IMG/VR virus record: IMGVR_UViG_3300008108_000037
Coordinates: 68,002-132,001 of that record
DNA length: 64,000 nt
From: a virus
Lineage: Duplodnaviria; Heunggongvirae; Uroviricota; Caudoviricetes
Strand: one strand, 5' to 3'
In this document: positions 1 through 52,605 of the stretch, piece by piece
How the letters are laid out: each line of letters begins with the position of its first letter
Numbering within the stretch: position 1 is the stretch's first letter
Position numbers and translations under genes: made by a program
The notes under the pieces: model-generated
What the model saw: only the letters and a program-made list of their open reading frames with translations
Databases searched by the model: none
Told to the model about the DNA's origin: nothing

Positions 1-647
1 TTTTTCATAGAGTTCCACATTTTTTCATTCCATTTTGTTGCATTTGTATGTAAATGGATTCGTTCTAAATTTGACCATTTTGACTTATCAAAGTTTCTTA
101 AAAAATCTCTAAATCCAACAGAAACAAATGGATCACCACTACCAGTTATATACAGCGTTTTTGTTGTTTTACCGTATTCATTTTCAATATCCTCAATCGT
201 TTTTTTAATCCTTTGTATTCCATCGGCACTTTCCACAATTAAATCAACCCTACAAGATGGACATTTAAGATTGCACGTTCTATCAAATGAAAATTGAATT
301 ATTGTTGGGGGTTCAGTGATCCCGTTATTAAATAAATCAATTCTTTCTTTTAATTTACTCGGCATCTCATTCTTATGATAAAGAGTATCAGTATTACCAA
401 TTTTTCCAAATGTTACTAATTGATGTAAAAACGGACACTGACCTTTATCACAATATTTATAAGAGCCATCTAAAACGGATTTTCTGATTTCTATAGCCTC
501 TTCGGATTCCCAGGAATTTTTTAATGTGGTGTTTTCTGGTAGATACTTTTTCAACCACGATGCACAACAAAGAAACCTATTTTTATGTTGTATTTCAAGT
601 GACACAAATGGAACAGCACACACATAATTTTTTAAATCGATACTCAT
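1..647 (-). CDS. radical SAM domain protein, partial (gene starts at 647-645 and runs past window start)
   Basis: Manual translation of minus strand from ATG (645-647) gives MSIDLKNYVCAVPF...FDRTCNLKCPSCRVD (CX3CX2C radical SAM cluster motif) then ...LYITGSGDPF; its start overlaps TAA stop of the upstream ORF (TAATG). Confidence 0.55.
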   Translation of the reverse strand, partial: MSIDLKNYVCAVPFVSLEIQHKNRFLCCASWLKKYLPENTTLKNSWESEEAIEIRKSVLDGSYKYCDKGQCPFLHQLVTFGKIGNTDTLYHKNEMPSKLKERIDLFNNGITEPPTIIQFSFDRTCNLKCPSCRVDLIVESADGIQRIKKTIEDIENEYGKTTKTLYITGSGDPFVSVGFRDFLRNFDKSKWSNLERIHLHTNATKWNEKMWNSMK

Positions 648-1321
648 TAAATTATATTTTTAATTTGTCTCTTGTTATTTAATATATCTATTAAAAATTC
701 TGAAAATTCATAGTGGGAGTCCTCGCACCAATGACCATCGTCTACCTCTCCATTGGTTTCTTGTTTTATGTTTCTATATTTTTTAGATAAAATAATCCCA
801 CATTTTGACAGGTCTGAACACCATGACCAATGAATTATTTTATTTTTAAGAGAAAAATTAATCAATTTCATCCAGTTACATATTTCTAGTACGTAAGGGA
901 AATTCGATCTATTAATTAGTAATTCTTGTATTGTTTTTTCCGAGATAAACTCAAATGTCTCAATTTTTTTATGTGCAAAAAATCCGTTTTCGTTACCTGG
1001 TTCAGGATTGAAATGTCCCCACTGATCTGACTTATTTACTAATCTAAACCTACTTTGATTAGTCCAACCAAAAATTAAAATATCCCCTTCCTTAATTTTA
1101 TCAACAACTTTACAAAACTCCTCTAAAATATGCGAGTTATCAACACCTCCCAGTCCTAAATTTATTAAATTTAAACCAAGTTTCTCAGCAATAATCTCAC
1201 CATAAACTTTCGGGACATATCCCTTATATTCAATGTATTTTTGTCTCCAGTGTATTGTTGATCTTTCCGGGGGGTAAAAATAATCGGTAAACGAATCCCC
1301 AAAGGTCCACAGATTATTCAT
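647..1321 (-). CDS. SGNH/GDSL-family hydrolase-like protein (paralog 1 of 7)
   Basis: N-terminal WTFGDSFTD block (GDS(x) catalytic Ser motif of SGNH hydrolases); paralogous to 3387-4022, 4528-5346, 13704-14489, 17095-17754, 21995-22915. Confidence 0.5.
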   Translation of the reverse strand: MNNLWTFGDSFTDYFYPPERSTIHWRQKYIEYKGYVPKVYGEIIAEKLGLNLINLGLGGVDNSHILEEFCKVVDKIKEGDILIFGWTNQSRFRLVNKSDQWGHFNPEPGNENGFFAHKKIETFEFISEKTIQELLINRSNFPYVLEICNWMKLINFSLKNKIIHWSWCSDLSKCGIILSKKYRNIKQETNGEVDDGHWCEDSHYEFSEFLIDILNNKRQIKNII

Positions 1322-1863
1322 CAGATCATTGTTTTATTTTTTTCTTGTCTTGTTGTTAATTTAATTGTTACATCGGATATCTCGATAGTATGATCTAGCT
1401 CTATAATAAAGTTTAAAATTTTAAACAAATCCTCGAATTTGAGTTTATTAAAATTCGCACCAAACATTTTATTATTCTCCATTGTACTTGGGTTAAAATT
1501 AATAACTCTAACTTTTTTATACGGATTGGCAATATTTAATGTCTGTGATAAATTTATTAGGTGTTTTTTATTTGAGACATATAGAGGACTAAAACATCCG
1601 TCCTCGTGTACTGCGGACGTTCCAAAATTTATTATTGTTTTTTCTAAATCCTTCCATTTTTCGAATAGTTCAAAAAAAACCAAGGATTGCTTCACATCTT
1701 TACTATATGCATGATTTAAAAATACATCGCATGAAGCTACCTGCGATAATATAGTGTCAATTTCTTCTCTTAGATCTATTTTAATTATATCGTGGGTCTT
1801 TCCCCACATAAGCGAAGCGTAATTGCCAAAACCGTCTGAAGTACCTGATATTGCTATTTTCAT
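1321..1863 (-). CDS. SDR-family NAD(P)-dependent oxidoreductase-like
   Basis: N-terminal IAISGTSDGFG glycine-rich Rossmann motif; downstream YVSNK (YxxxK) catalytic dyad; 180 aa. Confidence 0.4.
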   Translation of the reverse strand: MKIAISGTSDGFGNYASLMWGKTHDIIKIDLREEIDTILSQVASCDVFLNHAYSKDVKQSLVFFELFEKWKDLEKTIINFGTSAVHEDGCFSPLYVSNKKHLINLSQTLNIANPYKKVRVINFNPSTMENNKMFGANFNKLKFEDLFKILNFIIELDHTIEISDVTIKLTTRQEKNKTMI

Positions 1864-2363
1864 ATTAATTTCGAATTTCCTATTTGTAAATCATTCTTAT
1901 TTAAAAATAATATAAGGGACCATCTCTCACCTCCTAATATTTTTTTCACTTCATGGTCCCTATCACTTTTCATTGTATAAATTGTCCCAGTAACTTTAGG
2001 AAGTATTTCTAAAGGATTATATGCAATGAATTCTCCACCATCATAACTTTCATTTAAACAAACACCTATATTTAAAATTTGATCAGGATGCGTTGTCGAA
2101 TCATTATGTTTAGCAAATTCATTACCAGCCAAATAACGATGCAAATATATTTCTTGCATTTCATTTATTTTATTTTTTGAATATTCATCTAAAAGAAATT
2201 CTTTCAGTCGATCAAATATCCACTGGGTGTTACTATTTCTAAGTACAACATGATAATAGTAATTAAAATCATTTCTTTTAAATAATGATGATGAGTGTTT
2301 AGGTTTAAAAGTATTTGATAGATTAATTATCTTATTACATTCTTCTATTGAAAATGAAATCAT
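1860..2363 (-). CDS. 2OG-Fe(II) oxygenase superfamily protein
   Basis: HxD (AKHNDS) ... H (DHEVKK) ... RxS (GERWSLILF) triad arrangement typical of P4H/PhyH-like dioxygenases. Confidence 0.45.
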   Translation of the reverse strand: MISFSIEECNKIINLSNTFKPKHSSSLFKRNDFNYYYHVVLRNSNTQWIFDRLKEFLLDEYSKNKINEMQEIYLHRYLAGNEFAKHNDSTTHPDQILNIGVCLNESYDGGEFIAYNPLEILPKVTGTIYTMKSDRDHEVKKILGGERWSLILFLNKNDLQIGNSKLI

Positions 2364-2851
2364 ATTAATTTTTTTTTATTCATTATGTCGGTTCTTAATC
2401 GTTCAGAACTATTCTCGTCAAATAGATCTTCATAATATTGAATTGGTATTTTTAATTTATCAGACAATTCCTGTAAATCTTGACCCATTTTTATTAAAAG
2501 TTCTCTTGATTTATCAATCGTTTCTACTGGTGGTGCGACATATTCATATGGGGTTCCGGAATGATACCCATTTCGAATATTGTGATAAAGGTAAGAGTAT
2601 GATTCGAGATGATTTTTAAAATTTTTTCGATTTAATAATATCACATCATCAAATTTTTTTGATAATTCAAAATTATTCTCGTGCTGATGTATTATTGTTT
2701 TAACAACAACGTTATTCATATCATCGTCATATAAAAAACGATCACTACCGTCAAACGGCTCAAAGATTGCTCTAAATTCTCTTTCTTTCGAAATTTTATG
2801 TAATAAAGATGTAGATCCCGTTCTGGGTAATGATATTATTAAAATTCTCAT
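2360..2851 (-). CDS. sulfotransferase-domain protein
   Basis: N-terminal ISLPRTGSTSL resembles the PAPS 5'-phosphosulfate-binding loop (P-K/R-T/S-G-S/T-T) of sulfotransferases; 163 aa; same array as APS kinase. Confidence 0.45.
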   Translation of the reverse strand: MRILIISLPRTGSTSLLHKISKEREFRAIFEPFDGSDRFLYDDDMNNVVVKTIIHQHENNFELSKKFDDVILLNRKNFKNHLESYSYLYHNIRNGYHSGTPYEYVAPPVETIDKSRELLIKMGQDLQELSDKLKIPIQYYEDLFDENSSERLRTDIMNKKKLI

Positions 2852-3390
2852 ATTAATCTTTTATTGTCATATAATTTAAGATATTTAAAATCTGTATTAG
2901 TCATCCAAACATTTAAAGCGCATCTAACCCCAGTCGTGACAGGCATAACCCCATGGTATATTTTACTTCCATCAAAAGATATGGACTGTCCTATTTTTAA
3001 CAAATGTTTTTGTGAATCGTTTATGTTTTTTGATTTTGATAATATAAATCTCCCATCTTCAAAATTTTCGCTTAAAACTATTACTGTAGTTAGCTGTGAG
3101 GTTGAATCCAAGTGTAAATCTAATCTTCTACTATCGTAATATTTGGTAATACTTATATTAAAATCTTCAATTTTAAAATCTTTAAAATTAAACCACAATT
3201 TAAATTTTTCTTCTTCAAAATTTTTTATGAACCTGTCAAATATCAATTTATTAAATCCTAAATCGGAAATTCTTTTACAATCCCAAACCTCGGATGGATT
3301 ATAATTAAATTTTTTACCCACCCTATCTGCATATTCAATAATTGAATTACATTCCTCACCTCCAAAGAAATTGTTTATCGAATAGTTCAT
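2848..3390 (-). CDS. 2OG-Fe(II) oxygenase (P4H-like)
   Basis: LHLDST (HxD), IYHGV (second His), GVRCALNVW (Arg for 2OG C5 carboxylate). Confidence 0.45.
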   Translation of the reverse strand: MNYSINNFFGGEECNSIIEYADRVGKKFNYNPSEVWDCKRISDLGFNKLIFDRFIKNFEEEKFKLWFNFKDFKIEDFNISITKYYDSRRLDLHLDSTSQLTTVIVLSENFEDGRFILSKSKNINDSQKHLLKIGQSISFDGSKIYHGVMPVTTGVRCALNVWMTNTDFKYLKLYDNKRLI

Positions 3391-4022
3391 AATATTTTTT
3401 TATCCTTTATATCCTCCACAAATTCTACAACGGGTTCTTCTATTTCTAATAATCCATGAATTATTTTATACATTTCGTAACATCCTTTAGGTCCTGGATG
3501 AAAATCTATTTTTTCTCCAACTCCTTCTTCCCAATTGGAAGTTACCTTAATAAGTGTTACAAAGTCAGAGGTAGGAATGGCGAATTGTTCACTCCATGTA
3601 ATAAACACTGGATTATATATTTTTAACCATTTTTGGAGATTTTTTAAAAATTTAATGTCATTTTCCCTAACACCGTTTATCCAATTATTACCTTCAGTGA
3701 GTCTTAAATCATCTAATTTTTCGGCAAATTTACTATCCTTATAATATTGTGGCGATCTGTACTGGTTATTTAAATATAGTTCTTTTTTATCCCCATAATA
3801 CCTTCCGGGTAACCTTCCAGGGTCAGTAAATACAATAACAATTCTATCTCCCTCCATATATTCATCTAAATTACCTAATTGAAAAATTATTGAGGAGTTA
3901 TCAGCCCCAAGTTTACCATGTTTATAAACTTCGTAGTGTTTTGATAAATAATATCTCCAATGGTATTTTGGTATGTGCCAATCAACAAAAGAATCCCCAA
4001 AGCAAAATAATCTCGGTTTCAT
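3387..4022 (-). CDS. SGNH/GDSL-family hydrolase-like protein
   Basis: N-terminal LFCFGDSFVDW GDS motif; paralog family. Confidence 0.5.
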   Translation of the reverse strand: MKPRLFCFGDSFVDWHIPKYHWRYYLSKHYEVYKHGKLGADNSSIIFQLGNLDEYMEGDRIVIVFTDPGRLPGRYYGDKKELYLNNQYRSPQYYKDSKFAEKLDDLRLTEGNNWINGVRENDIKFLKNLQKWLKIYNPVFITWSEQFAIPTSDFVTLIKVTSNWEEGVGEKIDFHPGPKGCYEMYKIIHGLLEIEEPVVEFVEDIKDKKIL

Positions 4023-4525
4023 TAAATTAAAGACGTTCTTTTTTTATTAAACATTATAACTAAAACCCTCCTTTGTCCAGATTCTAACTGTGTAACTTGG
4101 TGAACCTGGTTGTTTCCCTCGAAATTAACATACTGTCCAATTTCTGTAAAATTTACATCCTCTCCATCAATTATTAATCTTCCTCCCACAAATTCATTCG
4201 ATAACAAAATTAACGTGGTCTGTAAAACAAAATACTTATCTCTGTGAGGTTTTGTTAAGTTTCCTTTATCATATATTAATTCATAGAAAAAATCTATTTC
4301 ATATTCAGGTTTGCCAAATTTTTCAACAATAAATGAATTAAACTTGCTATCGTGCATCCCATAATATTTCATTGATGTCAGGATTAGTGCATCCTCGCCT
4401 TTGATAACTATATAGGGATGCTTATATTTTAAATTTTCATATTCTAAAGGATTCATTCCCCCATTTTCCGAAAGTGCTTGATTGATGTAATCGATCTCTT
4501 CGCTATTTAAACAACCAATATCCAT
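4022..4525 (-). CDS. 2OG-Fe(II) oxygenase-like protein
   Basis: KPHRDK (HxD), QVHQV (His), GQRRVLVIMF (Arg) in P4H-like spacing. Confidence 0.4.
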   Translation of the reverse strand: MDIGCLNSEEIDYINQALSENGGMNPLEYENLKYKHPYIVIKGEDALILTSMKYYGMHDSKFNSFIVEKFGKPEYEIDFFYELIYDKGNLTKPHRDKYFVLQTTLILLSNEFVGGRLIIDGEDVNFTEIGQYVNFEGNNQVHQVTQLESGQRRVLVIMFNKKRTSLI

Positions 4526-4527
4526 AG

Positions 4528-5346
4528 TTATATCAAGATGTTAATTTTTCCTTTAGTCTTTTCCGATATGATTTTATTTTCTCCAATAAAACGGTATATT
4601 TCATCGGAAATTAGTTCATATCCAAGCTTATTTGGATGTACACCAACAAGGTTAATTGGGTTTTTAAAATTCTCCCAAATACTTTTTTTATCAAAACTGG
4701 TTAAAAAGTCCCTAAATGTTTCTTTGCGGAATCCCCAATAGTGCCTAGTGTCGATCAAATCGGTTTTATCAATTTCCCCTATAATATTTTTTGGCAACAT
4801 CATATCGAATCCATCGCAAAACAAATATCTAATACCCAAATTTTTAAACATATATTGCAAATACAATAAATAACCCTGGTTGACTATGTTATAATAATTT
4901 TCGTTGTATAAATTAACCGTGTACCATTCCTTATAGTCGATTTTTAATTTATTATAAATTTTATTTTCCCCATTTGAGCTCAGTATATGATCGTATATGT
5001 ATTTTTTGTCTAGATGTCTTTTACTCCATGAATGCCATTCATTATCTGGCGGAAAAAATGGCAATTCTTCCCTTAAGGGGGAAGACCACATTATAATCAC
5101 TAGATCATTCTCTTTAATCCTACCAGTATCTATACATTTACAAACGCAATTAAATATGAATCGATTATCTGATCCACCTACTCCGTAATTTTGGAGGTCT
5201 ATTTTTAATTTTTCTGCTAATTGTTTTGGCCAAGAATATTTGCTCCGAATTTTTGTTTTTTCCTCTAAACTACTTACCGCATTCTCTTCTGCTAAATCTC
5301 CACCAACACCCTCCGTCCAGCTATCCCCGAATGTATATAATTTCAT
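4528..5346 (-). CDS. SGNH/GDSL-family hydrolase-like protein
   Basis: N-terminal LYTFGDSWTEGVGG GDSL block; 272 aa. Confidence 0.5.
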   Translation of the reverse strand: MKLYTFGDSWTEGVGGDLAEENAVSSLEEKTKIRSKYSWPKQLAEKLKIDLQNYGVGGSDNRFIFNCVCKCIDTGRIKENDLVIIMWSSPLREELPFFPPDNEWHSWSKRHLDKKYIYDHILSSNGENKIYNKLKIDYKEWYTVNLYNENYYNIVNQGYLLYLQYMFKNLGIRYLFCDGFDMMLPKNIIGEIDKTDLIDTRHYWGFRKETFRDFLTSFDKKSIWENFKNPINLVGVHPNKLGYELISDEIYRFIGENKIISEKTKGKINILI

Positions 5347-5945
5347 AACAGGTTTTTTTTAAACATCTTATTGATTTCTCTTTCTCTTACCCAAATAACT
5401 AAAATATATTTTACACCATCCACAATTGGTAAACCAGCATGTAATGATTTTTTATTTAGTGTTCTATCCGGGTTTAAATTATTCCACACCAGCAAATCCC
5501 CCTGATTTCCTTTTATTTTAATTTTTTTCAAAGGAAATTCAGTTTCTCCCCCGATATAATCATCATTTAAATAAAATATTCCGGTTATTAATCGATCACC
5601 GCTTTCCCCATTAGGTATATTCTTTGGGTCTCCGTAGCAGTCATAATGTGGCTTGTATTCTCCCCCAATTCCATATCTTATAAAGGATACCGGGGTTTCT
5701 TGCTGATTAATGGTTGTTTTTGTTTTTTCTGAGAATATTTTACGAACTTTTTTTAGTAATTCGGATTCATTTCCATATACAGCAATTTCAGCTTTTCTAT
5801 ATTTTATATCTGATTCCACATCCCCATTAATTGTTCTCGCAGTTTTAAATTCGTTAAATTCTTTTATTAATTTTTCACAATCCATTTTATCTAATACTTC
5901 TGCATGTAATTGATATAAAAGGTTATTATTTTCAAAGTATCTCAT
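5343..5945 (-). CDS. prolyl 4-hydroxylase-like 2OG-Fe(II) oxygenase (start moved to second Met giving ATGA overlap at 5942-5945)
   Basis: KPHYDCYGD (HxD) ... SLHAGLPIVDGVKYILVIW matches P4Hc core; the ORF-track start at 6008 overlaps the upstream gene by 67 nt, whereas Met at 5945 gives a 4-nt ATGA overlap. Confidence 0.6.
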   Translation of the reverse strand: MRYFENNNLLYQLHAEVLDKMDCEKLIKEFNEFKTARTINGDVESDIKYRKAEIAVYGNESELLKKVRKIFSEKTKTTINQQETPVSFIRYGIGGEYKPHYDCYGDPKNIPNGESGDRLITGIFYLNDDYIGGETEFPLKKIKIKGNQGDLLVWNNLNPDRTLNKKSLHAGLPIVDGVKYILVIWVREREINKMFKKNLL

Positions 5946-6433
5946 ATAATAGTTTTTAATTTTCCCCAGTTCTTTATGTCCCCGTATCTTATATAAAATA
6001 ACGCACAATATCTAACCCCTCTTTTTACTTTTTTCACTTCGTGATATTCGCTTGATTTATAATGATATATTTCACCCATCGGTTTCAAGTATGGTTTATC
6101 GTTTAAATAAAACTCCCCACCTTCATAATCATCATTTAATAATATATTAATATTATAAATAAAATCTCTACTGAGTGAATTAGTGGCGGACCCCGAATCT
6201 ATATGTTTTTGAATTAGGTCACCCTCAATGTATTTTAATATACCTACATTAATTGTACTAATGTCCAAATTTAAATACTCACTACAATATTGAATAATTA
6301 AATTTTTAATTTCACCGTCTTCGACTTCAAATAAAGTGGAATAGTATGAACCACCAGTCTTCACCCTTTTCCATAAATTTTTTGATTCTGATAACTCAAT
6401 CAAATACCTACAATGACTATTTGAGATTTTCAT
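5942..6433 (-). CDS. 2OG-Fe(II) oxygenase-like protein
   Basis: QKHIDSG (HxD), EYHEVKK (His), GVRYCALFYI (Arg). Confidence 0.45.
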   Translation of the reverse strand: MKISNSHCRYLIELSESKNLWKRVKTGGSYYSTLFEVEDGEIKNLIIQYCSEYLNLDISTINVGILKYIEGDLIQKHIDSGSATNSLSRDFIYNINILLNDDYEGGEFYLNDKPYLKPMGEIYHYKSSEYHEVKKVKRGVRYCALFYIRYGDIKNWGKLKTII

Positions 6434-6436
6434 TAT

Positions 6437-6946
6437 TTAAATTAAATTTTTATAGATTTTAATCTGATCTATTTCATTTGTCAATGATCCATAAATTCCA
6501 ATTCTTTCTGGGGTTGAAAATTCGTCACATAAAAAATCCTCTGTTTTAAAAATTAATAGATCTCCGTCTTCCAATACTATTTCTTTTATTTCATTTTTTA
6601 ATCTTAATGATATCTTACTTTTAAAGGATTTTATAAAAAGAATGAATGAATATTTTGATTTTGGATTTATCCCTCTTTTTAACTGCTTATCGAATTTTAT
6701 TTCTTGGTCCAATTCCTGTTCCTGTATATAAGCGAAGGTGTTTTTGACATATACTTGAAAATCCTCTAGAGTTTCTTTTTCTAGGTTTTGTAATATGATT
6801 TCAATTATTTTTAAAGTTGTGTCCGATTCTAACCACAGGATTCTCTTATTAAATTCGGATTTTACGTGATGTGAATTCAGTATAATATCATATTTTAATA
6901 GTTCCAAATTAATTTTTGGCTTAACGATTTTATAAAACATGATCAA
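6437..6946 (-). CDS. hypothetical protein
   Basis: Long ORF in co-directional array; no motif recognised. Confidence 0.3.
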   Translation of the reverse strand: MIMFYKIVKPKINLELLKYDIILNSHHVKSEFNKRILWLESDTTLKIIEIILQNLEKETLEDFQVYVKNTFAYIQEQELDQEIKFDKQLKRGINPKSKYSFILFIKSFKSKISLRLKNEIKEIVLEDGDLLIFKTEDFLCDEFSTPERIGIYGSLTNEIDQIKIYKNLI

Positions 6947-7656
6947 GAATTTATATGATTTTTGAAGACGATCCTTCTATTTGTTTCCCTAATAGAATTA
7001 AAATCATAATTAATATTCGTTGTGTATACTATTCTATCAGATTCTGAACCTAATGTAAGGGTTGGCATATGTTGTAAATCACCAGGAAAAAATAGAATAT
7101 CGCTTTCTTTTGGAGTGAATGAATGTAATTTTTCGTCTTCTGTTTTAAAAATAAGATCCCCTTCTCCATCTTTAAGATCCGAAGGAATTTGTATATAAAA
7201 AACATAGGTCCATTGCGTTTTCAAATTTGTTCTATTCGATGATTCTATCCAGTCATGGGTGTGCATCCATTCCATTTTAAAACCCGGAACTTGTATGTAT
7301 ATCCAACTGGATTTTATAAATCTGTCTATTTTGCAAGACAATTTTTTCCTTAAAAAATCCAATGCCTGATTATCTACAGATCTAAATTCATCGCATCCAA
7401 TATGGACGTCCAATGAATTTTGTACCCTGTATGTCTCGTTTTGGTATAAGGATTCGTTTTGATATATTCTAGTTAAAAATTCTTTTTTCGAAAACTGATT
7501 ATCGTACCTTGTCTTGTAGATTGTGTATTTTTCTGACAGCTTATATTGTTCTGAAAAGTTTATTTTTTTCATATTTCCCATATTTAGTAAACAGTTCATT
7601 TCCACGATATATTTTTTTCGTGGCAATCGATAAATTTCTATCAATATTCGGTTCAC
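6943..7656 (-). CDS. hypothetical protein, possible cupin/2OG-oxygenase-like (true start probably an internal Met near 7572-7581)
   Basis: MHTHDW and DLQHMPT His-containing blocks; the 5' end overlaps the downstream-array gene 7541-7975 by ~115 nt unless an internal Met is used. Confidence 0.25.
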   Translation of the reverse strand: MNRILIEIYRLPRKKYIVEMNCLLNMGNMKKINFSEQYKLSEKYTIYKTRYDNQFSKKEFLTRIYQNESLYQNETYRVQNSLDVHIGCDEFRSVDNQALDFLRKKLSCKIDRFIKSSWIYIQVPGFKMEWMHTHDWIESSNRTNLKTQWTYVFYIQIPSDLKDGEGDLIFKTEDEKLHSFTPKESDILFFPGDLQHMPTLTLGSESDRIVYTTNINYDFNSIRETNRRIVFKNHINS

Positions 7657-7975
7657 TATCCCAAGAACAGCTGTTTACCCAGTGCATGGGTGTTTTAAAT
7701 ATCCAATGACAATTTTTTTCTAGATTGACATTAAACGTCCATTCGTCACCAATCTTAGAAAATTCGTACATATCATAAACATGGATCTTAACGTTATAAT
7801 CAAGGGAATTTAATTCTGATTCAGTTAATTGGTAAATCCCTGAATCCCCCTTCCAGTTAACGAATATTTCTTCCCCCTCATCGATATCTCTAAGAGCAAA
7901 AATACCTACTCCGTGTATATTGCTCGGCGACATTTTAACGTTCACATGATTTTTGATGTATTCATATGCAGTCAT
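7541..7975 (-). CDS. SET-domain protein (putative protein lysine methyltransferase), paralog A
   Basis: N-terminal HGVGIFALRDIDEGEEI (SET N-region G-x-G...GE-I), central WVNSCSWDSEPN (NHSCxPN-like pseudoknot), C-terminal RGNELFTKYG (GEEL..Y). Confidence 0.4.
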   Translation of the reverse strand: MTAYEYIKNHVNVKMSPSNIHGVGIFALRDIDEGEEIFVNWKGDSGIYQLTESELNSLDYNVKIHVYDMYEFSKIGDEWTFNVNLEKNCHWIFKTPMHWVNSCSWDSEPNIDRNLSIATKKIYRGNELFTKYGKYEKNKLFRTI

Positions 7976-8448
7976 TATATGAAATTTTTTGGTGTGGTTC
8001 TGAATTGAGATCCATAGTTTCCTAATATCTCTTCACCTTCTTTTATCTTTCTAATTGCAACAGGTGCCACATTATTATTGCTATCCACGTTACAGTTTTT
8101 CAATCCACTGTTCATAAACATTTTTGGCCAAATGTATATCCAGTGATAACCTCGCTCTAAGGGGAAAAATATTTTTCCATATTCCTTAGGTATGATTTGT
8201 TCGACCCCATTTTTATCAACAAACCACATTTTATTGTCAAAGGTTTCGTATAAATTTTTTTGGAGCTTATCAGGGAGTGTGAATAATTCTTCCTGTGTAA
8301 TTGAATATATCCCACTCTCCCCATGCCAAAGATCAAAAACAGATTCACCTGCTTCAATATCTCTAATGGCAAAAAATCCAACGCCCTCTACAGAACTCGG
8401 CTTAAGTATTGCTGTGACCTTTTGCTGAAGATATTCTAAAGGAGTCAT
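7975..8448 (-). CDS. SET-domain protein, paralog B
   Basis: EGVGFFAIRDIEAGESV, MNSGLKNCNVD, KEGEEILGNYG; tandem duplicate of 7541-7975 with a 1-nt stop/start overlap. Confidence 0.4.
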   Translation of the reverse strand: MTPLEYLQQKVTAILKPSSVEGVGFFAIRDIEAGESVFDLWHGESGIYSITQEELFTLPDKLQKNLYETFDNKMWFVDKNGVEQIIPKEYGKIFFPLERGYHWIYIWPKMFMNSGLKNCNVDSNNNVAPVAIRKIKEGEEILGNYGSQFRTTPKNFI

Positions 8449-8612
8449 AAATATCCACAGAATTTAAGAATGTTTTAACTTAATCAGTTCTACAAGTTTT
8501 GACAATATAGTGAAGGTTTTCTGTTTTTTATCCTCGCTGATCGATGAAGCTTGTCTTAATTTAAGATCAACAGTATTAATTGACTTATATTTTGTTGGTT
8601 TTATCATGATCT

Positions 8613-10487
8613 TTATATTTTTGGTATTCCTCTGTTATGTGCTAAAATTCCATTAGCAAAAAAGTTATGATTATTTTTAATATCCTGTAAATTATAAACT
8701 AGAGTGGTTTCTTCTATCATGTTTATGTTCACAATTTTTGAGCTCCCCTTTAATAACTTTAAACAGTCTCCAATCTCTATCTTACCGATTTTAGATTCTA
8801 TAGTATACAGTTTATTAGATAGATTATTATCGAATGAAGACCATCCTTTATCTTCAACATATACTGGGTGATCTATGGTACATTTTAAAAATTCACCATT
8901 CTCTAATTCATACTCAACAATTCGGTCCACTTTTTTACTATAAACAGCATTTACTGTATTGGCCTCAATATTATTTGATAGCATGTTAAGTGTCAGTACA
9001 GAATCACCAGCAATAATATCCTCTATATTTTTTGTAACACCTTCCGAGATGGTTATTTTCGTGCCTGCAACGAAACATGGTGCATTGTGTGTTACGAATG
9101 AATTGACAGGAGTTGATCCTGCTATTATGTAGGTGTCAGTATCCTCAACATCAATTTCAACTAAGCTGAAATTGTTTTCATTAATTATTAATATTTCAGA
9201 ATTTGTGACCTGCGCTAATGATCCATCATAATCTACTAAGTAATCTGTCGTTGTTTTTATGTTTACAGATTGTTTCCATACGATCGAGTCCATTCCCTCG
9301 TCATAAACTAAGAAAGATTTATGAACCGACGTATAAATTGAATCCTCGTTATTATTTACTGTTATATTAGATAATGTTTTATTCAACAATTCTTTACTAT
9401 TTTTATATATAACAGTAGATGTCGTTAGATTAGATTCCGGTGGTAAGGTGTTTCCTGATATTTGCCAAGTTGGATATGTGAAGTCGTCTTCCGTTAAATC
9501 TGTTCCCCCTATATAATAAGATTTTATTTCTTCCCCGACAGAAATGTTCCCTATTTCTACCTCAGTATCATCAGATTTAATTATTAAATGCGTGTTTAAA
9601 ATGCCATCAATTATACCATCATATTTAATAAAATTTGTTGCAAACTCGTAATAATGTTTATTGTCTATCTTATTAATGTATTGGGCTTCATTATAAATTG
9701 ATTCGACAGGTAATTCAAATGCCGCACTTTCCTGAAATTGTCCTACGTGAATTAGGGACAGATCACCTCCGTAAATAATCGAGAAAGTTCTCACTGTGGA
9801 AACTTTATTATCTGAAACGGTTTGTGAACTTATGTGATATTTTTGTATTACGTTATTTTCTGTTGCCTTTTCGCTGATGAATACTCCCCATCGGCTTTGG
9901 TCTGTATCTTCAGTGGATTCGCTGCCTATTTTATAAAAATCTATAAGGGAATGTTCCGCATCGCTTATGTTTTTTATTAAGCAATCTGGCAAATTTCCCG
10001 AATTAAAATCCCTAGAAATCGTATCGTATTGTCCGAGTGAGGATGAATGATAAAACTCCGCAACGCTATCCTGCTCATTATAATCACAGAATAGCCTAAG
10101 TGTGTTTAATGTTCCCTTAGCATACTCGCTATCAAAAATGGCTGATTCGTCATACGCCATTCTCAGAACGAATAAGTCTGAAGCATCCTCAACAGGAGTC
10201 GGGTATATTCTGTTTGATTGCTCTTTTATCTCCTTAAATTCTGTGATAAATGGAGCGTTCGATGTCAATGATTCGGAAAGTTTATCGACTATATACTGAT
10301 GTATGTTCGGCTTATGTACTACCGTTACTCTTGTGATGTTATTGCTCTCTAAAACCGAGATAAGGTCGTTAAAATCCAGATAGACTAAATTATTAGTCGA
10401 AATAGTTGTGTCTGTATTTACTTCCAATAGTCTTAAATTGCCAACGCTATCCTCAATAAAATCCGCGGAAAAAAAGGTTCCTTTCAT
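8613..10487 (-). CDS. protein with C-terminal Hint (Hedgehog/intein-like) autoprocessing domain
   Basis: C-terminal ~150 aa: CFVAGTKITI (Hint block A nucleophile Cys), CTIDHPVYV (TxxH block B), VYNLQDIKNNHNFFANGILAHN then RGIPKI-stop (block G ending HN with no nucleophile following, so not a classical intein); N-terminal 460 aa of unknown function. Confidence 0.55.
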   Translation of the reverse strand: MKGTFFSADFIEDSVGNLRLLEVNTDTTISTNNLVYLDFNDLISVLESNNITRVTVVHKPNIHQYIVDKLSESLTSNAPFITEFKEIKEQSNRIYPTPVEDASDLFVLRMAYDESAIFDSEYAKGTLNTLRLFCDYNEQDSVAEFYHSSSLGQYDTISRDFNSGNLPDCLIKNISDAEHSLIDFYKIGSESTEDTDQSRWGVFISEKATENNVIQKYHISSQTVSDNKVSTVRTFSIIYGGDLSLIHVGQFQESAAFELPVESIYNEAQYINKIDNKHYYEFATNFIKYDGIIDGILNTHLIIKSDDTEVEIGNISVGEEIKSYYIGGTDLTEDDFTYPTWQISGNTLPPESNLTTSTVIYKNSKELLNKTLSNITVNNNEDSIYTSVHKSFLVYDEGMDSIVWKQSVNIKTTTDYLVDYDGSLAQVTNSEILIINENNFSLVEIDVEDTDTYIIAGSTPVNSFVTHNAPCFVAGTKITISEGVTKNIEDIIAGDSVLTLNMLSNNIEANTVNAVYSKKVDRIVEYELENGEFLKCTIDHPVYVEDKGWSSFDNNLSNKLYTIESKIGKIEIGDCLKLLKGSSKIVNINMIEETTLVYNLQDIKNNHNFFANGILAHNRGIPKI

Positions 10488-17754: not shown

Positions 17755-19532
17755 ATTAATATTTTATCTATGACCTCTGTTTCACCTCCGGGGAACACCG
17801 CTATATCTTCGAACAGAACCTCATTGTCCCCAAGTCCCCCTAATTTTAATTGTTTTTTGAGAGTTATAAAATTCCTAAATTTGCATATCTGAAAATTAAG
17901 AGGGGTAGTTTGATTCTTTACTCCAATCTCTTTTAAATAGTGATAAAAAACTAACTCAGGTATCAGGTGGTTTCTGCTTTCTTCAAACGTTCTAATGTCT
18001 ATACTTGGTAGGTGCCTATAAAAATCGCAAATTTTATCGAACGTTAAAGAATCTGAAAACCAAAACACATCACCAATTGCAAAATGAGGGTAAACATCAA
18101 TTTTTCTATTATGTATAGAAAATATAGTATTTGGTTTAACAGTTGATAAAATTTCGATTAAATCAAAAACCTGTCCCCATGGAACATATTGATCGTACCG
18201 TAATCTGATACAAACATCATATTCGAAATTATTTTCTATCTCGTATTGTCTTTTCAATTCGCACGATCTCATCACTGCATAAAACTGGTTTGCACACCAA
18301 GTAATGGGCGGACCTTCATTTTCTGGATATCTCTCCTCTGCAATGTCAATAACATCCTGGTTTACTCTTTGATTTTTTTCAAAATCCTCAATTAGATATT
18401 TTTTCGGTTTGTATATTTTAATTATTTCATTTAATTTATCATCGTCGTACGGAGTTACTCTATTATTGGCGGTTACATCCAATATTGGTCTGGATTCGCT
18501 TTCAAAATTCCAAGCATGGCAGAAAAAGTCGACAGTGCTATTAGGATCACTTTCAACTTTATTTTTTAGCTTTATTATGTTGTGGTAGCATTTTTCATAA
18601 GTTCTGAATTGACCACTTAAGCAGATAGCAATTTTCATAGTTCTTAATTTTTTTAACACATTGGGTGAAAACCCGGTCTTTTCAAAAATTTCTTTTTTGA
18701 ATTTCAAAAGTAGATTGTATCCGATGTGTTTGACGTTTGATAATTTTTGAAACTCGTGATTATATAATATTCTATTGATTTCAACACACTCCCTAAAATT
18801 ATCCACTGGATGATAACCCAGGGAGAATTCTCTAAAGATTGTCCACTTATACTCCATTTCATTTAGAAACTCTATAGATTCTATATTATTTTCCTTGAGA
18901 TAATCATCAAAAAACACGTGATAAAGATCTTTGCTTTTATCTGTTGTGATAATATAGTTATGAAACAATGAAGCCTTATCCATAACTGAGGAATTTGACA
19001 TAAATACCACATCATGCAGCATTCTGCTTGAAGGATTCTCAAATTCTGTTATTGTGTCGACTAAAAAAATACCATTTTTGATAAAAGAAATGTTGTCGTG
19101 AATTATATTTTTTAATTTAATCGACGGATCATATATGCAATCCATTCTCATTTTTATTACAACGTCGTATTGAAAATTGTTTTCCTCTTCGTATTTCTTT
19201 TTTAAATTAACACTTTCATACCAGCTGTACCACATCGGGGAATTTGATGTCCCCTTTTTTAGAGACAAATCGTAATAGTCCTCGTAAATATCAACCTTAG
19301 TTTTTTTTGGTTTGTATATGTTATTAATTTTTATGTAATCATTTAGTTCTACCTTCTTGATATGGGTATATTCATGTTCGGGTCTTTCGTCCCCAAAAAA
19401 TCTTTTACCGTCATTAATATCCCACGTGTGTATAAAATAGTCGGCCTCACATCCCTCAATAAAATTGAGTATGTTGATGGAAGAATCAACTGCCCTTCTT
19501 ATTTGACCACTAAAGCAAATCGCAATTTTCAT
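17751..19532 (-). CDS. hypothetical protein with internally duplicated ~290-aa domain
   Basis: Two repeats each starting MKIAIC(F/L)SGQ(I/F)R and containing (Y/F)F(I/C)H(T/A)W(D/N); no known family recognised. Confidence 0.3.
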   Translation of the reverse strand: MKIAICFSGQIRRAVDSSINILNFIEGCEADYFIHTWDINDGKRFFGDERPEHEYTHIKKVELNDYIKINNIYKPKKTKVDIYEDYYDLSLKKGTSNSPMWYSWYESVNLKKKYEEENNFQYDVVIKMRMDCIYDPSIKLKNIIHDNISFIKNGIFLVDTITEFENPSSRMLHDVVFMSNSSVMDKASLFHNYIITTDKSKDLYHVFFDDYLKENNIESIEFLNEMEYKWTIFREFSLGYHPVDNFRECVEINRILYNHEFQKLSNVKHIGYNLLLKFKKEIFEKTGFSPNVLKKLRTMKIAICLSGQFRTYEKCYHNIIKLKNKVESDPNSTVDFFCHAWNFESESRPILDVTANNRVTPYDDDKLNEIIKIYKPKKYLIEDFEKNQRVNQDVIDIAEERYPENEGPPITWCANQFYAVMRSCELKRQYEIENNFEYDVCIRLRYDQYVPWGQVFDLIEILSTVKPNTIFSIHNRKIDVYPHFAIGDVFWFSDSLTFDKICDFYRHLPSIDIRTFEESRNHLIPELVFYHYLKEIGVKNQTTPLNFQICKFRNFITLKKQLKLGGLGDNEVLFEDIAVFPGGETEVIDKILI

Positions 19533-20679
19533 ACTCTAATAAATAATCTCCAATGTCTAGATTTCTTATAGAATCCATCATTTTTAAAAAATTGGAAGAT
19601 TTTTTTTCTAAATTCCCATCTTTTTTATTTTCTATCTCGTACATAAATCTATTTCTGTCGCCATCTCCCAATTTGTAGATTTGCTCCATTGCAAGATCCT
19701 TCAGCTTTGGGTGTAAACAAGATATGTGTAAGTAATTGGGGCTATAGACAAAATTATATTCAATTTGTTCACCGGAAAAAAACTCTCTAAAATTCCACAC
19801 ATTACAAACATTCAAAACACTTATTGTCTGGGTTATAGTAATTTGTAATTTTTCTTTTTTCAGTTTTAAAAAATTATCATACACAACTTCCCATTTTGAA
19901 GGATATCTTATATAATCATTCCTATTTCCAACGTCGTCTATAGAAAGCTGTAGTTTTACCTCCCGAAATTCTCTTAACAGCTCTAAAAACCTGTCTGGTA
20001 AATTTGTACAGTTTATGTTATATACCAGCTTTATATTTTTTGATTTGTCTAGAGAAATCAACTTCTCCAAAAAGTAAAAATGCTCCTTTATCAACGTTGG
20101 TTCTCCCCCGTTGATGTAAATTTCCTCCAATTCGCTAGAATGCTTTAATAATTCATCATACCATTCTTTGTTTTTAAACCAATCGCTTTTATAATCTTCA
20201 TAGTTGTAATGATCGTCTCCGAACGTGGACGGAAATCTTTTAACATCTTCTATCCACTTGCTACTTGACATCGGGTTGCATGTTAAACACTTTATGTTAC
20301 AAACATTACCGAGTCTTAATTCGATAAACTTAAGATGTATATTTGGGAGTTTTTCGCTTATACTTATTTTATTGAGATATTTAGCATTTTCTTCATCTCT
20401 TTTACTCTTGAATCCGTTTTCTTCTATCCTGTAACAACCTATACATTCGATAGGTTTCTCATTATTCATCATCTTTCTTCTAATTTCTGTGAAAGAATCA
20501 GAATTCATAATGTCTTCTATGCTATCCTTACCTAGGGTTAATACTCTATTTTTAGTTTTGGAGAAACAAACCCCATTTTCAAAATTAGCAATACAACAAG
20601 GTGACACCAGCCCGTTAGGATGAGTTGCTAAATGCGTAAACGGTAACGAACATATAGTTTTTAAATTTGTGTCCACCAT
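19510..20679 (-). CDS. radical SAM enzyme with N-terminal Cys-rich extension (short subfamily)
   Basis: CSLPFTHLATHPNGLVSPCC and CIGCYRIEE precede LGNVCNIKCLTC (CX3CX2C); IYINGGEPTL (GGEP SAM-binding glycine motif). Confidence 0.6.
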   Translation of the reverse strand: MVDTNLKTICSLPFTHLATHPNGLVSPCCIANFENGVCFSKTKNRVLTLGKDSIEDIMNSDSFTEIRRKMMNNEKPIECIGCYRIEENGFKSKRDEENAKYLNKISISEKLPNIHLKFIELRLGNVCNIKCLTCNPMSSSKWIEDVKRFPSTFGDDHYNYEDYKSDWFKNKEWYDELLKHSSELEEIYINGGEPTLIKEHFYFLEKLISLDKSKNIKLVYNINCTNLPDRFLELLREFREVKLQLSIDDVGNRNDYIRYPSKWEVVYDNFLKLKKEKLQITITQTISVLNVCNVWNFREFFSGEQIEYNFVYSPNYLHISCLHPKLKDLAMEQIYKLGDGDRNRFMYEIENKKDGNLEKKSSNFLKMMDSIRNLDIGDYLLEYENCDLL

Positions 20680-21998
20680 TCTAATAATTTTTTGTTTTGT
20701 CCTAGAATATTCTCAAATGTTAATGATCCATTTAAACCGTCCTTTCTGAACTCTGCTATTCTTATCATGTTTTCTTTCCCTCTCTTTCTGCCCTCTTTAT
20801 AATCTGGATACGATTCTTCGAAAGTTTTTTTGGTTTTTAAATCTTCTAAAGCCTCCACATAAATTTGGGTTTTCGATGTAACCCTTGGCTTAATGTAATC
20901 TAGGGTATCGTCTATAATTTCTTCGAGGATGGACCTAGGTATTGACAATGGAGACATAAGAACAGAGGAATCGAAAGAAAAAGTTGTTTTTATATAGGTT
21001 ACTACATTTAATTCCACTGCACGATCGAATAATTCTTTTATAGACAGTAGGCCTGGAAGAGTTATTGTAAGATCAAAAACCATTCCATGATCGCCGTATA
21101 AATCGTTTAGAAAAAGACCTCCCTTAAAATTATCTAGCCACTTTTCCCACACTATTCCAGTTCTGATAAATTCAACAATTTTTCCAGTTCCATCTATACT
21201 TGCACACAGATTTACCCTTTTAAAATGAGGCAGAAAATCATATAGATTCATTCCTTTATATGATACCCTGCTTAAATTTGTGTTGTATCTTATTATAACA
21301 TTCTTGGATTGATTATTATCAACCAAATACTTCATGATATCCCAATGAATGTCCCACATCAATGGTTCACCACCTACCCAATATATTTCTTCTATTCTAT
21401 TCTCTTTCACTGCTTCCCAAAGTTCGTTTTCAGTAACTTCTTTCTGGAATTTTTTAAATTTTTCTTGATTTTCTTTTTTATAAAATGGCTCGGTTTCTAA
21501 ATTAATGTTGCCCATTATTTTTCTTTCCGCCTCCCACTGTGAACTTAACAAGTCGCCACACATTCTACATTTAAAATTACACAGATTACTTATCCGATAG
21601 TCATATGATATTGGTTTCATGTGAGTGTAACCATCATCTTCCGTTTTTTCGAATATCTCGTCTATTTTGTGGGGAAAAAGTGTATTGGTGAAATAACCTT
21701 TGTATGTGTAAAGATTTAGAATTTGATCGTTACAAACCTGACATTGTGGAATTGACTCTCCGGACATTATTCTTTTTCTAATGTTTTTCATATAATCACT
21801 ATTCCAATGATCCTCCAGCGAAACTGGTTTAAAATGTGAGTTATCGTCAGGATTTTCAGAATCTATGTACTGTTTAATATAGTTTGCCTTTTCCCTACTT
21901 GCACAACATAATCTTCTTTCCCCCTGTGGGGAAAGATATGTGTGTGTCCACGGTGCTGTACAAAAAAATTCATTTCCATCCGAAGGTTTTATTCTCAT
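20661..21998 (-). CDS. radical SAM enzyme with N-terminal Cys-rich extension (short subfamily)
   Basis: FCTAPWTHTYLSPQGERRLCC, CQVCNDQ, then ISNLCNFKCRMC (CX3CX2C), IYWVGGEPLM. Confidence 0.6.
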   Translation of the reverse strand: MRIKPSDGNEFFCTAPWTHTYLSPQGERRLCCASREKANYIKQYIDSENPDDNSHFKPVSLEDHWNSDYMKNIRKRIMSGESIPQCQVCNDQILNLYTYKGYFTNTLFPHKIDEIFEKTEDDGYTHMKPISYDYRISNLCNFKCRMCGDLLSSQWEAERKIMGNINLETEPFYKKENQEKFKKFQKEVTENELWEAVKENRIEEIYWVGGEPLMWDIHWDIMKYLVDNNQSKNVIIRYNTNLSRVSYKGMNLYDFLPHFKRVNLCASIDGTGKIVEFIRTGIVWEKWLDNFKGGLFLNDLYGDHGMVFDLTITLPGLLSIKELFDRAVELNVVTYIKTTFSFDSSVLMSPLSIPRSILEEIIDDTLDYIKPRVTSKTQIYVEALEDLKTKKTFEESYPDYKEGRKRGKENMIRIAEFRKDGLNGSLTFENILGQNKKLLEWWTQI

Positions 21999-22915
21999 AT
22001 TAATCTGCTAGATTTTATTATATTCTGCGTATAGAGATCACCCCTTCCGTTTGAAATCCATTCATACAACAATTCTGCCCATAATTTGTGCGATTTGGGT
22101 GTTGGATGTACACCATATAATCTTTCCTCCAACGGTATCTGTTTTATATAATTTAAAAATGAATTTGATGGCTTGTCTTTCATCAGAAAATTGGATTCTG
22201 GTACATGGTCCCATTTTAATTTACTCATACGGTATAGATCCTCCCCCCAAATACCTTCAACATATTTGAAAGAATCTATCCATTTCATAATATTTAAGTC
22301 TATAAATTTTCTTTCCATTTTATAGATATGATGTTCCTCAGGTAAAGCATTGAACAAATAACATGGAATTCCGTACTTATCGCAAAACGTACGTATTTCA
22401 AAATTGTAGTTTATGAAATCGTACGCTCCTTCATAGTCATTTTGAACAACCGATAAATACCACTTAAAGAATTCCCTCATTCCATATTCCTCTTTATTGA
22501 AATCTCCGTTACTGTTTAGAGTTTTTCGGTATATTTTATTATGAGTATTGAAAAAAAATTCCTTTCTAACTATAGAGGTCCATCCAATGACTACAATGAT
22601 GTCATCTGGAGTTTTATTAGGGACAATGTAGTTTTCAAGTAGCCAGTTTAAAAGTGTTTCAAAAATCCATTTGTTACCTACTGCAGGCTTGGCTAAATTT
22701 ATAACCTCTTTTGCCCCTATTAATTCTTTTAAATATGTTGGCCAAATTCTTTCAATCCTATATTGATCGTTTTTTGCGTCAGTATCTTCTTCTATTATCC
22801 CGTTAAATTTATTTATTTGGTGAGGCTTTGATGGAGCTTCCAAAAACTGTGGGTCCACAATTTCACTACCATATGTAAAGCTATCTCCGCACACAACTAA
22901 TTTCATTTCACTCAT
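21995..22915 (-). CDS. SGNH/GDSL-family hydrolase-like protein
   Basis: N-terminal KLVVCGDSFTYGSE. Confidence 0.5.
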   Translation of the reverse strand: MSEMKLVVCGDSFTYGSEIVDPQFLEAPSKPHQINKFNGIIEEDTDAKNDQYRIERIWPTYLKELIGAKEVINLAKPAVGNKWIFETLLNWLLENYIVPNKTPDDIIVVIGWTSIVRKEFFFNTHNKIYRKTLNSNGDFNKEEYGMREFFKWYLSVVQNDYEGAYDFINYNFEIRTFCDKYGIPCYLFNALPEEHHIYKMERKFIDLNIMKWIDSFKYVEGIWGEDLYRMSKLKWDHVPESNFLMKDKPSNSFLNYIKQIPLEERLYGVHPTPKSHKLWAELLYEWISNGRGDLYTQNIIKSSRLI

Positions 22916-36808: not shown

Positions 36809-37191
36809 GGGGGTGTATTTGGCACTTGACAGACATTGGTAGTTCTTTGAGATGATGCAGGCCGAGTTAGTATTGGAAACTCGTTAATCACCTATGCAAA
36901 CAATAAACGACGTAGAATTATCTACAATGACCTTCGAAGACGCTATGTCTTTCGTTGGTGCTGATTACGCAATAGCTGCCTAATCCCTCCCGCACACATC
37001 GTGGGGCTTAAAATAGAATGTGAACCCAGGTGGAATATGACTGAACCCGAAATCGAGTCATCTGAATTTGGTAGTTTAATCAGCCAACTATAAACTACAT
37101 ATTTTGTTTGTAAAGAAAAACAAGCTAAGCCTGTGAATGAGTTTCTTTTAACAGATGGACTGGACACCGGTTCGATTCCGGTCACCTCCAC
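36809..37191 (+). ncRNA. ssrA: tmRNA (ssrA); CCA not encoded
   Basis: 5' GGGGGTG pairs with 3' CACCTCC with a G3-U70 wobble (alanine identity); 3' tRNA-like T-arm ACCGGTTCGATTCCGGT; internal ORF ending GCT GAT TAC GCA ATA GCT GCC TAA (...ADYAIAA-stop), resembling canonical tags ending YALAA. Confidence 0.6.
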
Positions 37192-37206
37192 AAAAATTAA
37201 TTTAAT

Positions 37207-52252: not shown

Positions 52253-52257
52253 CAATT

Positions 52258-52320: not shown

Positions 52321-52401
52321 ATAGGAGGCTCGATACTAACGTAAAACTTGTACACTAACATAATCCTTGTTAGCGTACAAAAAGTTCGTTAGCAGTCAAA
52401 T

Positions 52402-52488: not shown

Positions 52489-52494
52489 CACATG

Positions 52495-52600: not shown

Positions 52601-52605
52601 CTTTT

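Follow-up and report, generated by a model that had tools for sequence, protein, structure and literature searches.

A 64,000-nucleotide stretch of a Caudoviricetes virus (IMG/VR record IMGVR_UViG_3300008108_000037, positions 68,002 to 132,001; hereafter the window) encodes on its minus strand a 624-residue protein that is organised as an ATP-grasp-like domain (residues 1–294), a degenerate Hint fold that we term Hint0 (295–468), an Ala-Pro linker, a complete Hint domain that we term Hint1 (471–618) and a six-residue tail, RGIPKI (Table 1). We find that Hint1 carries the defining features of a type A bacterial intein-like (BIL) domain, that its catalytic residues and both of its junctions are maintained throughout a large family restricted to viruses, and that the tail which follows it bears a conserved lysine. 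Our tentatively favoured interpretation, to which we attach somewhat less than even confidence, is that Hint1 excises itself from the precursor and that the lysine tail is re-joined to the enzyme-like core.

The last 154 residues of the protein read CFVAGTKI...CTIDHP...NNHNFFANGILAHN-RGIPKI and are followed by a TAA stop, the very C-terminus being ...NHNFFANGILAHN-RGIPKI-TAA. They contain Cys471 at the head of block A (CFVAGTKI), T537-I-D-H540-P of block B, NHNFF of block F and H617-N618 of block G. A preliminary description of this DNA, made from the letters alone, had proposed that the protein ends in a complete Hint domain, and the Pfam check that was run bears this out, with profile matches from Pfam, NCBIfam and the PDB all falling at residues 471–618. 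The terminal block G named in that description is likewise present, but the stretch that was quoted for it spans blocks F and G. Matches that passed the Pfam gathering cut-offs were obtained to Intein_splicing (1.1e-10), PT-HINT (2.7e-07) and Vint (8.3e-07), and NCBIfam likewise gave above-threshold matches to intein_Nterm (9.5e-07) and intein_Cterm (0.0047); the Pfam Hint (Hog) model stayed below its cut-off on this protein (26.8 vs 29.7 bits). The best-matching PDB sequence was BIL2 of Tetrahymena (6tmm/6y75), at 1.2e-10 when the single sequence was used as query and at 3.8e-19 for the family profile; the corresponding values for the C. thermocellum BIL (2lwy) were 8.5e-08 and 6.3e-14. No homing endonuclease domain was found in the protein, and Hint1 is of mini-intein size.

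A further Pfam model, AXH (the Ataxin-1/HBP1 module), also matches Hint1, at 51.7 bits against a gathering cut-off of 33, and is matched by 65 of 67 relatives at up to 6.8e-31; Ataxin-1 AXH chains are among the PDB sequence matches as well. This match reflects either a real relationship between AXH and Hint domains or cross-matching of the model to the N-terminal halves of Hint domains.

Conservation was counted across more than 120 relatives of 43–99% identity, which are not phylogenetically independent, a problem that the use of representatives at 50% identity lessens. Within this set Hint1 is kept without exception: Cys1 in 122/122, T-x-D-H-P in 123, the terminal His-Asn in 120/120 and the Arg that follows it (position +1) in 120/120. 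Mean pairwise identity among the relatives is 0.52 for the ATP-grasp part, 0.52 for Hint0 and 0.53 for Hint1, and because Hint1 evolves at the rate of the core, both decay and recent invasion can be dismissed. The sequence features that define these groups place Hint1 in the HINT superfamily and among the type A BILs, a class characterised by an N-terminal nucleophile, a C-terminal His-Asn and no nucleophile at +1 (PMC4031507; PMC7664689). Judged by these comparisons, Hint1 has been passed on vertically under strong constraint and is a stable component of an enzyme-like protein confined to viruses.

The portion upstream of Hint1 had been described as a single N-terminal domain of 460 residues; it is in fact 470 residues long and consists of the ATP-grasp-like domain and Hint0. 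Residues 1–294 match nothing in Pfam, NCBIfam, PHROGs or PADLOC, and fold similarity points to a carboxylate-amine ligase of the ATP-grasp type. The domain begins directly at the strand bearing an invariant E22-x-N24, within its first two strands; the other invariant polar residues are K59, H63, R109, D113, D119, K186, R233, H278, E281, N285 and K288. Among these, E22-x-N24, K59, R109, K186 and R233 are candidates for the Mg/ATP-binding positions of ATP-grasp enzymes. In the circularly permuted arrangement of eukaryotic glutathione synthetase, an E-x-N motif lies near the N-terminus, and the place of E22-x-N24 would fit the identity of the best fold matches, which are of this circularly permuted, glutathione-synthetase type. 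Such enzymes (eukaryotic glutathione synthetase, GspS/YgiC, Cp1B) show 9–13% identity to residues 1–294 and give no profile match, and the domain here differs from them in its size (294 residues vs 370–590) and in being fused to Hint domains. We infer from the fold that residues 1–294 may have ligase activity.

In Hint0, Gly295 replaces Cys1 and Lys390 replaces the block-B His, and the terminal His467-Asn468 is invariant, with His-Asn kept in 122/122 relatives; Hint0, Hint1 and the second BIL of relatives (Hint2) align in register in MAFFT. The linker between Hint0 and Hint1 would provide the −2 and −1 positions of a predicted thioester junction and reads AP or SP at 162 of the ~190 junctions compared across the family, P470 being invariant in A1. 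Since Hint0 shows that Hint folds of this family can lose catalytic residues and persist, and since an AlphaFold2 model packs it confidently against the ATP-grasp domain (pTM 0.84), one may ask whether Hint1 too has a structural or scaffolding role with no catalysis, or is a neutral relic, in a protein that works as an uncleaved 71-kDa chain. We consider this highly improbable: not one catalytic residue of Hint1 varies among more than 120 relatives, in contrast to the loss of Cys1 and the block-B His from Hint0, and a relic would not match the evolutionary rate of the core.

The preliminary description had suggested a search for homologues of the N-terminal part. When this was run with residues 1–470, it returned 833 proteins at 90% clustering, and an exhaustive HMMER search yielded 246 clusters at 50% identity, all of which align from residue 1. 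These proteins fall into length classes of about 460–495, 600–670, 730–790 and 904–935 residues, in which the extra length always represents more Hint units and never extein, with zero to three BIL units placed after Hint0. One member of 475 residues (P0021) ends after Hint0 (...VHN-PAPPPKL) and lacks a BIL, most relatives carry two BILs (...HN-R-F-CFVAGT...NHNFYANGILVHN-K-stop), several carry three (P0130, L008, L016, L017, L020), and a subset has a different second Hint that lacks the terminal HN. Versions with no, one, two or three BILs share one gene slot and its neighbours. In the multi-BIL proteins, it is the first BIL that is the orthologue of Hint1 (median 132–160 bits vs 72–108 for later units), and identities of 28–51% between the units of one protein point to tandem duplications of different ages.

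The family is restricted to viruses, with at least 82 IMG/VR loci vs a single match in 185,579 GTDB species genomes, the latter on a 2.8-kb contig binned in a Cyanobium metagenome-assembled genome. A tblastn search of deposited phage genomes (INPHARED) with the core, residues 1–470, returned nothing even at E<=1; a fold search of BFVD gave Hint-level matches only, and PHROGs and PADLOC gave nothing. The architecture had been called unusual at first sight, a view that its absence from deposited phages, PHROGs and BFVD upholds. The best Hint match in a deposited phage, a Ruminococcus phage, was rejected as an instance of the same architecture, as its Hint sits mid-protein. Members of the family currently carry the labels 'hypothetical' or 'intein/homing endonuclease'.

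The residues that follow the last Hint domain obey a simple rule. Among 117 cluster representatives of at least 455 residues, 82 quasi-independent lineages have an HN-type Hint end followed by at most 12 residues, and the tail contains Lys in all 82, at +1 in 67 (where it is usually also the last residue) and elsewhere in 15, against a Lys background of 5.4%. The rule extends to proteins with Hint0 only (...FHNK-stop, ...IHNKVKIEPPK-stop). In the sub-clade to which the protein of the window belongs, Arg occupies +1 and Lys is penultimate (RGIPKI, RKL, RKY and others), and an RGIPKI-type tail is what precise loss of Hint2 from ...HN-R-F-[Hint2]-K-L would leave; where one Hint unit follows another inside a protein, the linker is R, RF, RS or the like. 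In the most divergent branch, found in a similar phage context, the HN of Hint0 is followed by a Cys-rich peptide of 25–35 residues that again ends in Lys. Members of this branch include P0246, P0248, P0255, P0263 and P0269 (also P0256, P0264, P0270 and P0278; positions 1749-3227 of locus L086), and a CxxCxxCC protein, radical SAM genes and 2-oxoglutarate (2OG) oxygenases are encoded near them. The arrangement looks like a tethered peptide precursor.

As the preliminary description had noted, RGIPKI contains no Cys, Ser or Thr, and the Arg at +1 rules out protein splicing in the canonical (class 1) sense. A C-extein, which it had reported to be missing, was also looked for elsewhere and none was found: the stop is clean, and the next gene, which starts from its own ATG 5 nt further on, is kept beside a Hint-less homologue too. 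For the same reasons the downstream open reading frame (ORF) was rejected as a displaced C-extein. The notion of a canonical intein in a split or interrupted gene, whose C-extein would lie elsewhere and be joined by trans-splicing or be hidden by a mis-called stop, could draw on the 'intein/homing endonuclease' label that JGI gives to some relatives. We regard it as effectively refuted by the family comparison, given the Arg at +1 in every relative counted, the clean TAA followed by a conserved separate gene, the identity of the extra ~150 residues of longer relatives as Hint domains and not extein, the Hint-less homologue that ends ...HN-PAPPPKL-stop in the same slot, and the lack of an endonuclease domain.

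In the interpretation that we favour, the precursor would comprise a core, made up of an ATP-grasp-type fold and an ancient degenerate Hint0 that retains only its terminal His-Asn, followed by Hint1 and the Lys tail. Cys471 would attack the Pro470-Cys471 bond in an N–S acyl shift to yield a thioester, and cyclisation of Asn618, assisted by His617, would cut the Asn618-Arg619 bond. In the absence of a thiol or hydroxyl at +1, the flanks could be joined only through attack of an amine on the thioester; this amine would be either the freed alpha-amine of Arg619, as has been proposed for type A BILs, or the epsilon-amine of Lys623, as in BIL2, and simple hydrolysis (cleavage) would compete as a side reaction. 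The product, core-HN-AP-RGIPKI, would mimic the Hint-less members of the family, which read core-HN-(short linker)-Lys. In favour of re-joining, BIL2 joins its N-flank to a lysine epsilon-amine in an ATP-independent isopeptide bond (PMC8616854), and the C. thermocellum BIL is documented to ligate in the absence of nucleophilic side chains, according to references given in PMC4031507.

The preliminary description had envisaged release, and possibly C-terminal modification, of the N-terminal part. The conservation of both junctions and of the tail Lys in versions with zero, one, two and three Hint units argues instead for selection on excision plus re-joining of the tail. Cyclisation of the Hint0 Asn alone could detach everything downstream, yet Cys1 and HN of Hint1 and the tail Lys are kept, as are the Cys1, the His-Asn and the +1 residue of every BIL, which suggests that the tail must return to the core. 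Moreover, the existence of Hint-less members shows that BILs are dispensable for the core, and the Lys tail is all that lies past the last Hint and is kept in all versions, making re-joining the simplest account.

Several considerations weigh against excision with re-joining. Type A BILs that have been characterised yield mostly cleavage products and splice only to a minor extent (PMC4031507), and a relative with several BILs would have to complete two or three ligations in succession. The basic residue at +1 (Arg at internal junctions, Lys at terminal ones) could simply be a requirement of Asn cyclisation rather than evidence for a role of the tail, and ~12 lineages end in a different Hint type that lacks HN, so that re-joining cannot be universal in the family. 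The ATP-grasp assignment is a fold similarity of moderate Z (7.2–8.9), with no ATP-grasp family of Pfam matched by any of 67 members (E<=1) and none in NCBIfam, and the chemistry put forward here is read in its entirety from sequence. We infer in like manner the roles of the lysine tail and of the 47-residue partner described below.

The main rival is cleavage alone in the manner of Hedgehog proteins, in which water or a small-molecule nucleophile would resolve the Pro470-Cys471 thioester, Hint1 and the tail would be discarded, and a 52-kDa ATP-grasp-Hint0 core would be released, possibly with a C-terminal adduct. This would agree with the mainly N- and C-cleaved products of type A BILs (PMC4031507, PMC7664689) and with the lack of a +1 nucleophile, and the surrounding genes (APS-kinase-like, nucleotidyltransferase-like, SET, 2OG-oxygenase and radical SAM) could supply unusual nucleophiles. 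It would leave the invariant His-Asn, Arg+1 and tail Lys without a purpose, as none is needed for N-terminal cleavage alone; the HN of Hint0 could detach the downstream part with no Cys1 at all, Hint-less members function without such a step, and the protein ends six residues past the HN with no extension resembling a sterol-recognition region. We judge cleavage alone to be unlikely, if still a serious contender. The Hedgehog-like label of the preliminary description does not hold in its strict sense, since the protein lacks a sterol-recognition region, has an invariant His-Asn and falls within the definition of a type A BIL (PMC4031507). The Hedgehog Hog domain (1at0) performs an N–S acyl shift only, has a sterol-recognition region after the Hint and does not depend on a terminal His-Asn, whereas the HN of Hint1 is invariant and only six residues follow it.

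The neighbourhood of the gene was surveyed by unbiased clustering of same-strand ORFs at 82 loci, using a simple in-house ORF caller. The sole strictly conserved neighbour is an ORF of ~47 residues that lies directly downstream in 82/82 loci, Hint-less ones included. Among 58 unique sequences, the encoded partner protein has Tyr-Lys near its N-terminus in 57 and an amphipathic C-terminal helix ending K-x-K-H-S/L/T in 50; it has no match in Pfam, NCBIfam, PHROG or PADLOC. In the branch with Cys-rich tails, the +1 gene position is taken by another ORF, which is small and acidic. Members that do not end in HN (P0136, P0144, P0160, P0164, P0182, P0209) have C-termini of the form ...K-Y-[KQ]-R-Q-x(3-5)-L-x-K-H-L, which resemble the two motifs of the partner (YK ... 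K-H-S/L), as if the tail mimicked it.

The other neighbours vary. Paralogous 2OG oxygenases occur at 73/82 loci in shifting positions, SET genes at about 27/82, and a trio of kinase, nucleotidyltransferase and DUF2061 genes at 13-16. A fixed operon with APS-kinase-like, DUF2061 and SET genes was rejected, as only 13-27 of 84 loci keep them and they are neighbours in the protein's own sub-clade only. In the window, two tandem genes of the SET-domain (lysine methyltransferase) type come directly after the partner ORF; in view of the invariant lysines of the tail and the partner, their presence is suggestive.

The constancy of the partner bears on another explanation, in which Hint1 would act as a one-shot, ATP-independent donor that, as at the Tetrahymena BUBL locus, uses the Pro470 thioester to hand the core to a lysine on a second protein, most obviously that of the invariant Tyr-Lys of the partner. 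BIL2 of that locus, the closest solved relative of Hint1, does make lysine epsilon-isopeptides with its N-flank (PMC8616854), and the partner's place next to the gene at every locus and its invariant YK would suit an acceptor. The partner stands equally beside Hint-less members (L001, L079-L081), however, and so belongs to the core and not to the BIL; ubiquitin-like flanks are lacking; and where a protein has several BILs in a row, each would donate the one before it, to no evident use. We rank this conjugation third and think it has only a slim chance of being correct.

We also considered, as an improbable option, that the protein is a self-contained machine for tail processing, in which an ATP-grasp ligase would be joined, via a Hint0 capable of cleavage only, to its own substrate, the Lys-ended tail. 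With the same low probability, that tail would be the Cys-rich peptide of 25–35 residues in divergent members, Lys alone in most, or a BIL-interrupted form from which the BILs must splice out. The ligase would act on the terminal Lys or the carboxylate of the tail, perhaps with the partner, and Asn cyclisation in Hint0 would release the product, a step to which we give no better prospects. Backbone cyclisation of the core through its own N-terminal amine is very unlikely, as is a role for Hint0 like that of class 2 inteins.

Hint domains are known as inteins, which are selfish and splice, as Hedgehog processors, and as BILs of bacterial surface proteins and toxins; classical BILs reportedly reside in variable secreted or surface proteins. 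Hint1 resembles type A BILs (Amitai et al. 2003; Dassa et al. 2004; 2lwy) in its Cys1, T-x-x-H and His-Asn, in lacking a +1 nucleophile and an endonuclease, and in its predicted chemistry (a thioester at the N-junction, Asn cyclisation at the C-junction, ligation by an amine only), and 2lwy is among its best sequence and structure matches. It differs from them in being encoded by a phage and not a bacterium, in lying at the extreme C-terminus with 1–10 residues after it, in the tandem arrays of relatives, which reach three units behind a fourth, degenerate Hint, and in the invariably basic +1 residue, the invariant tail Lys and the fusion to an ATP-grasp-like domain. With BIL2 of Tetrahymena thermophila BUBL1 it shares, nearly verbatim, the ending ...NNHNFFANG-LAH(N) and the lack of a +1 hydroxyl or thiol; the flanks of BIL2 are ubiquitin-like domains, and it delivers Ubl4 to substrates, whereas here the N-flank is enzyme-like and the C-flank has six residues.

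Class 1 phage mini-inteins (such as gp41-1, NrdJ-1 and DnaX) are alike in fold, size and catalytic blocks and are the best matches of the relatives' Hint2, and the presence or absence of BILs at a fixed site resembles intein-containing and intein-free alleles. Unlike them, Hint1 is followed by neither a +1 nucleophile nor a C-extein domain that is conserved and functional, contains no homing endonuclease, is passed on vertically at the rate of its host protein, and belongs to units that arose by tandem duplication. The pretoxin-HINT domain of polymorphic toxins matches at the profile level (PT-HINT), but no toxin domain lies downstream here.

Table 1. Features of the Hint-containing protein, its partner gene and other parts of the window (positions are those of the window)
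Feature	Position	Strand	Description
Whole ORF	8613..10487	-	624 aa + TAA stop; from the ORF list and the DNA at both ends
ATP-grasp-like carboxylate-amine ligase fold, aa 1-294	9606..10487	-	Fold similarity
Hint0, aa 295-468	9084..9605	-	Degenerate Hint fold; MAFFT alignment and fold
Ala469-Pro470 linker, Hint0-Hint1	9078..9083	-	-2/-1 of predicted thioester junction
Hint1, aa 471-618 (148 aa)	8634..9077	-	Complete type A BIL domain by profiles and conservation
Tail R619-G-I-P-K623-I624	8616..8633	-	Arg+1 invariant; conserved near-terminal Lys; no Cys/Ser/Thr
47-aa partner gene	8464..8607	-	Starts 5 nt past the ORF stop; own ATG; 82/82 loci
Two tandem SET-domain genes	7541-8448	-	Lysine methyltransferase type
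~Twelve small paralogous genes	647-7656	-	160-270 aa; several 2OG-Fe(II) oxygenases; 4-bp start/stop overlaps
Fusion protein, 643 aa	14452-16383	-	Cupin/mannose-6-phosphate-isomerase-like, nucleotidyltransferase and APH-type kinase domains
Three adjoining radical SAM proteins	19510-24467	-	Two with N-terminal SPASM-like domain
tmRNA	36809-37193	+	Rfam RF00023, 79.5 bits, full length
21 tRNA genes, 15 amino acids	38855-61151	+	Mostly in three clusters: 52166-53126, 58899-59535, 60766-61151
727-aa protein	40517-42700	+	Contains radical SAM domain
Collagen-like tail-fibre ORF, 1567 aa	46154-50857	+	Many tail-fibre PHROG matches
UDP-galactopyranose mutase homologue	61186-62274	+	~50% identity to glf of Streptococcus phages and gut phage contigs

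The phage genome is large, as seen in a window of 30–37% GC with tightly packed co-oriented genes, 21 tRNA genes, a transfer-messenger RNA (tmRNA) and a tail-fibre gene. Megablast against INPHARED gave no close DNA relatives of the 6-kb neighbourhood of the gene. An identical or near-identical protein (P0126/P0001) is found on up to 18 contigs, the longest of 219 kb, and relatives of the protein lie on IMG/VR contigs of up to 326 kb. The minus-strand block around the ORF is an island of biosynthesis and modification genes, which encodes several small 2OG-Fe(II) oxygenases, two SET-domain proteins, DUF2061, GDSL-like proteins, a P-loop (APS-kinase-like) protein, an HxGH nucleotidyltransferase-like protein, a fusion of cupin, NTP-transferase and kinase domains, and three radical SAM/SPASM-type proteins. 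The 643-residue fusion could make an unusual nucleotide-sugar.

Elsewhere in the window, GC and AT skew change sign at ~32431/32540 (~32 kb), where gene orientation turns from minus to plus (divergent transcription). On the plus-strand side, the tmRNA, with a long predicted tag peptide (DVELSTMTFEDAMSFVGADYAIAA), adjoins a tRNA-Met gene upstream of two tRNA arrays; a set of tRNA genes of this size is typical of very large phages. GC in the collagen-like tail-fibre ORF reaches 0.45–0.49 vs ~0.32 elsewhere in the window, and it is overlapped by long spurious ORFs, on the opposite strand as well as in other frames, as is expected from its Gly-X-Y repeats. The gene for the UDP-galactopyranose mutase homologue lies directly 3' of a tRNA cluster.

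We found no ATP-grasp-Hint fusion and no tandem BILs in phages in the literature. The autoprocessing chemistry of Hint1 is almost certainly the known one, to judge by its motifs; the architecture and its logic are undescribed. Relative to the descriptions that we found, what appears to be new is an ATP-grasp-like host protein that belongs to no sequence family, a degenerate Hint kept as a permanent domain, arrays of one to four Hint folds at the very C-terminus, the invariant ...HN-Lys ending, the obligate 47-residue partner and the restriction to large uncultured phages.

Should re-joining of the tail proceed with no nucleophilic side chain, the family would hold hundreds of natural variants of side-chain-independent ligation, which would be of interest for protein engineering. 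If the lysine tail is instead a substrate or product, ATP-grasp ligation and Hint cleavage would be linked in a new phage-encoded maturation system; tail processing of this kind, if true, would offer a protease-free route to a modified peptide or amino acid during phage infection and the first instance in nature of a biosynthetic scaffold that uses Hint chemistry for its release step. Either way, these findings define a large, previously unannotated protein family (~246 clusters at 50% identity) with a testable anatomy.

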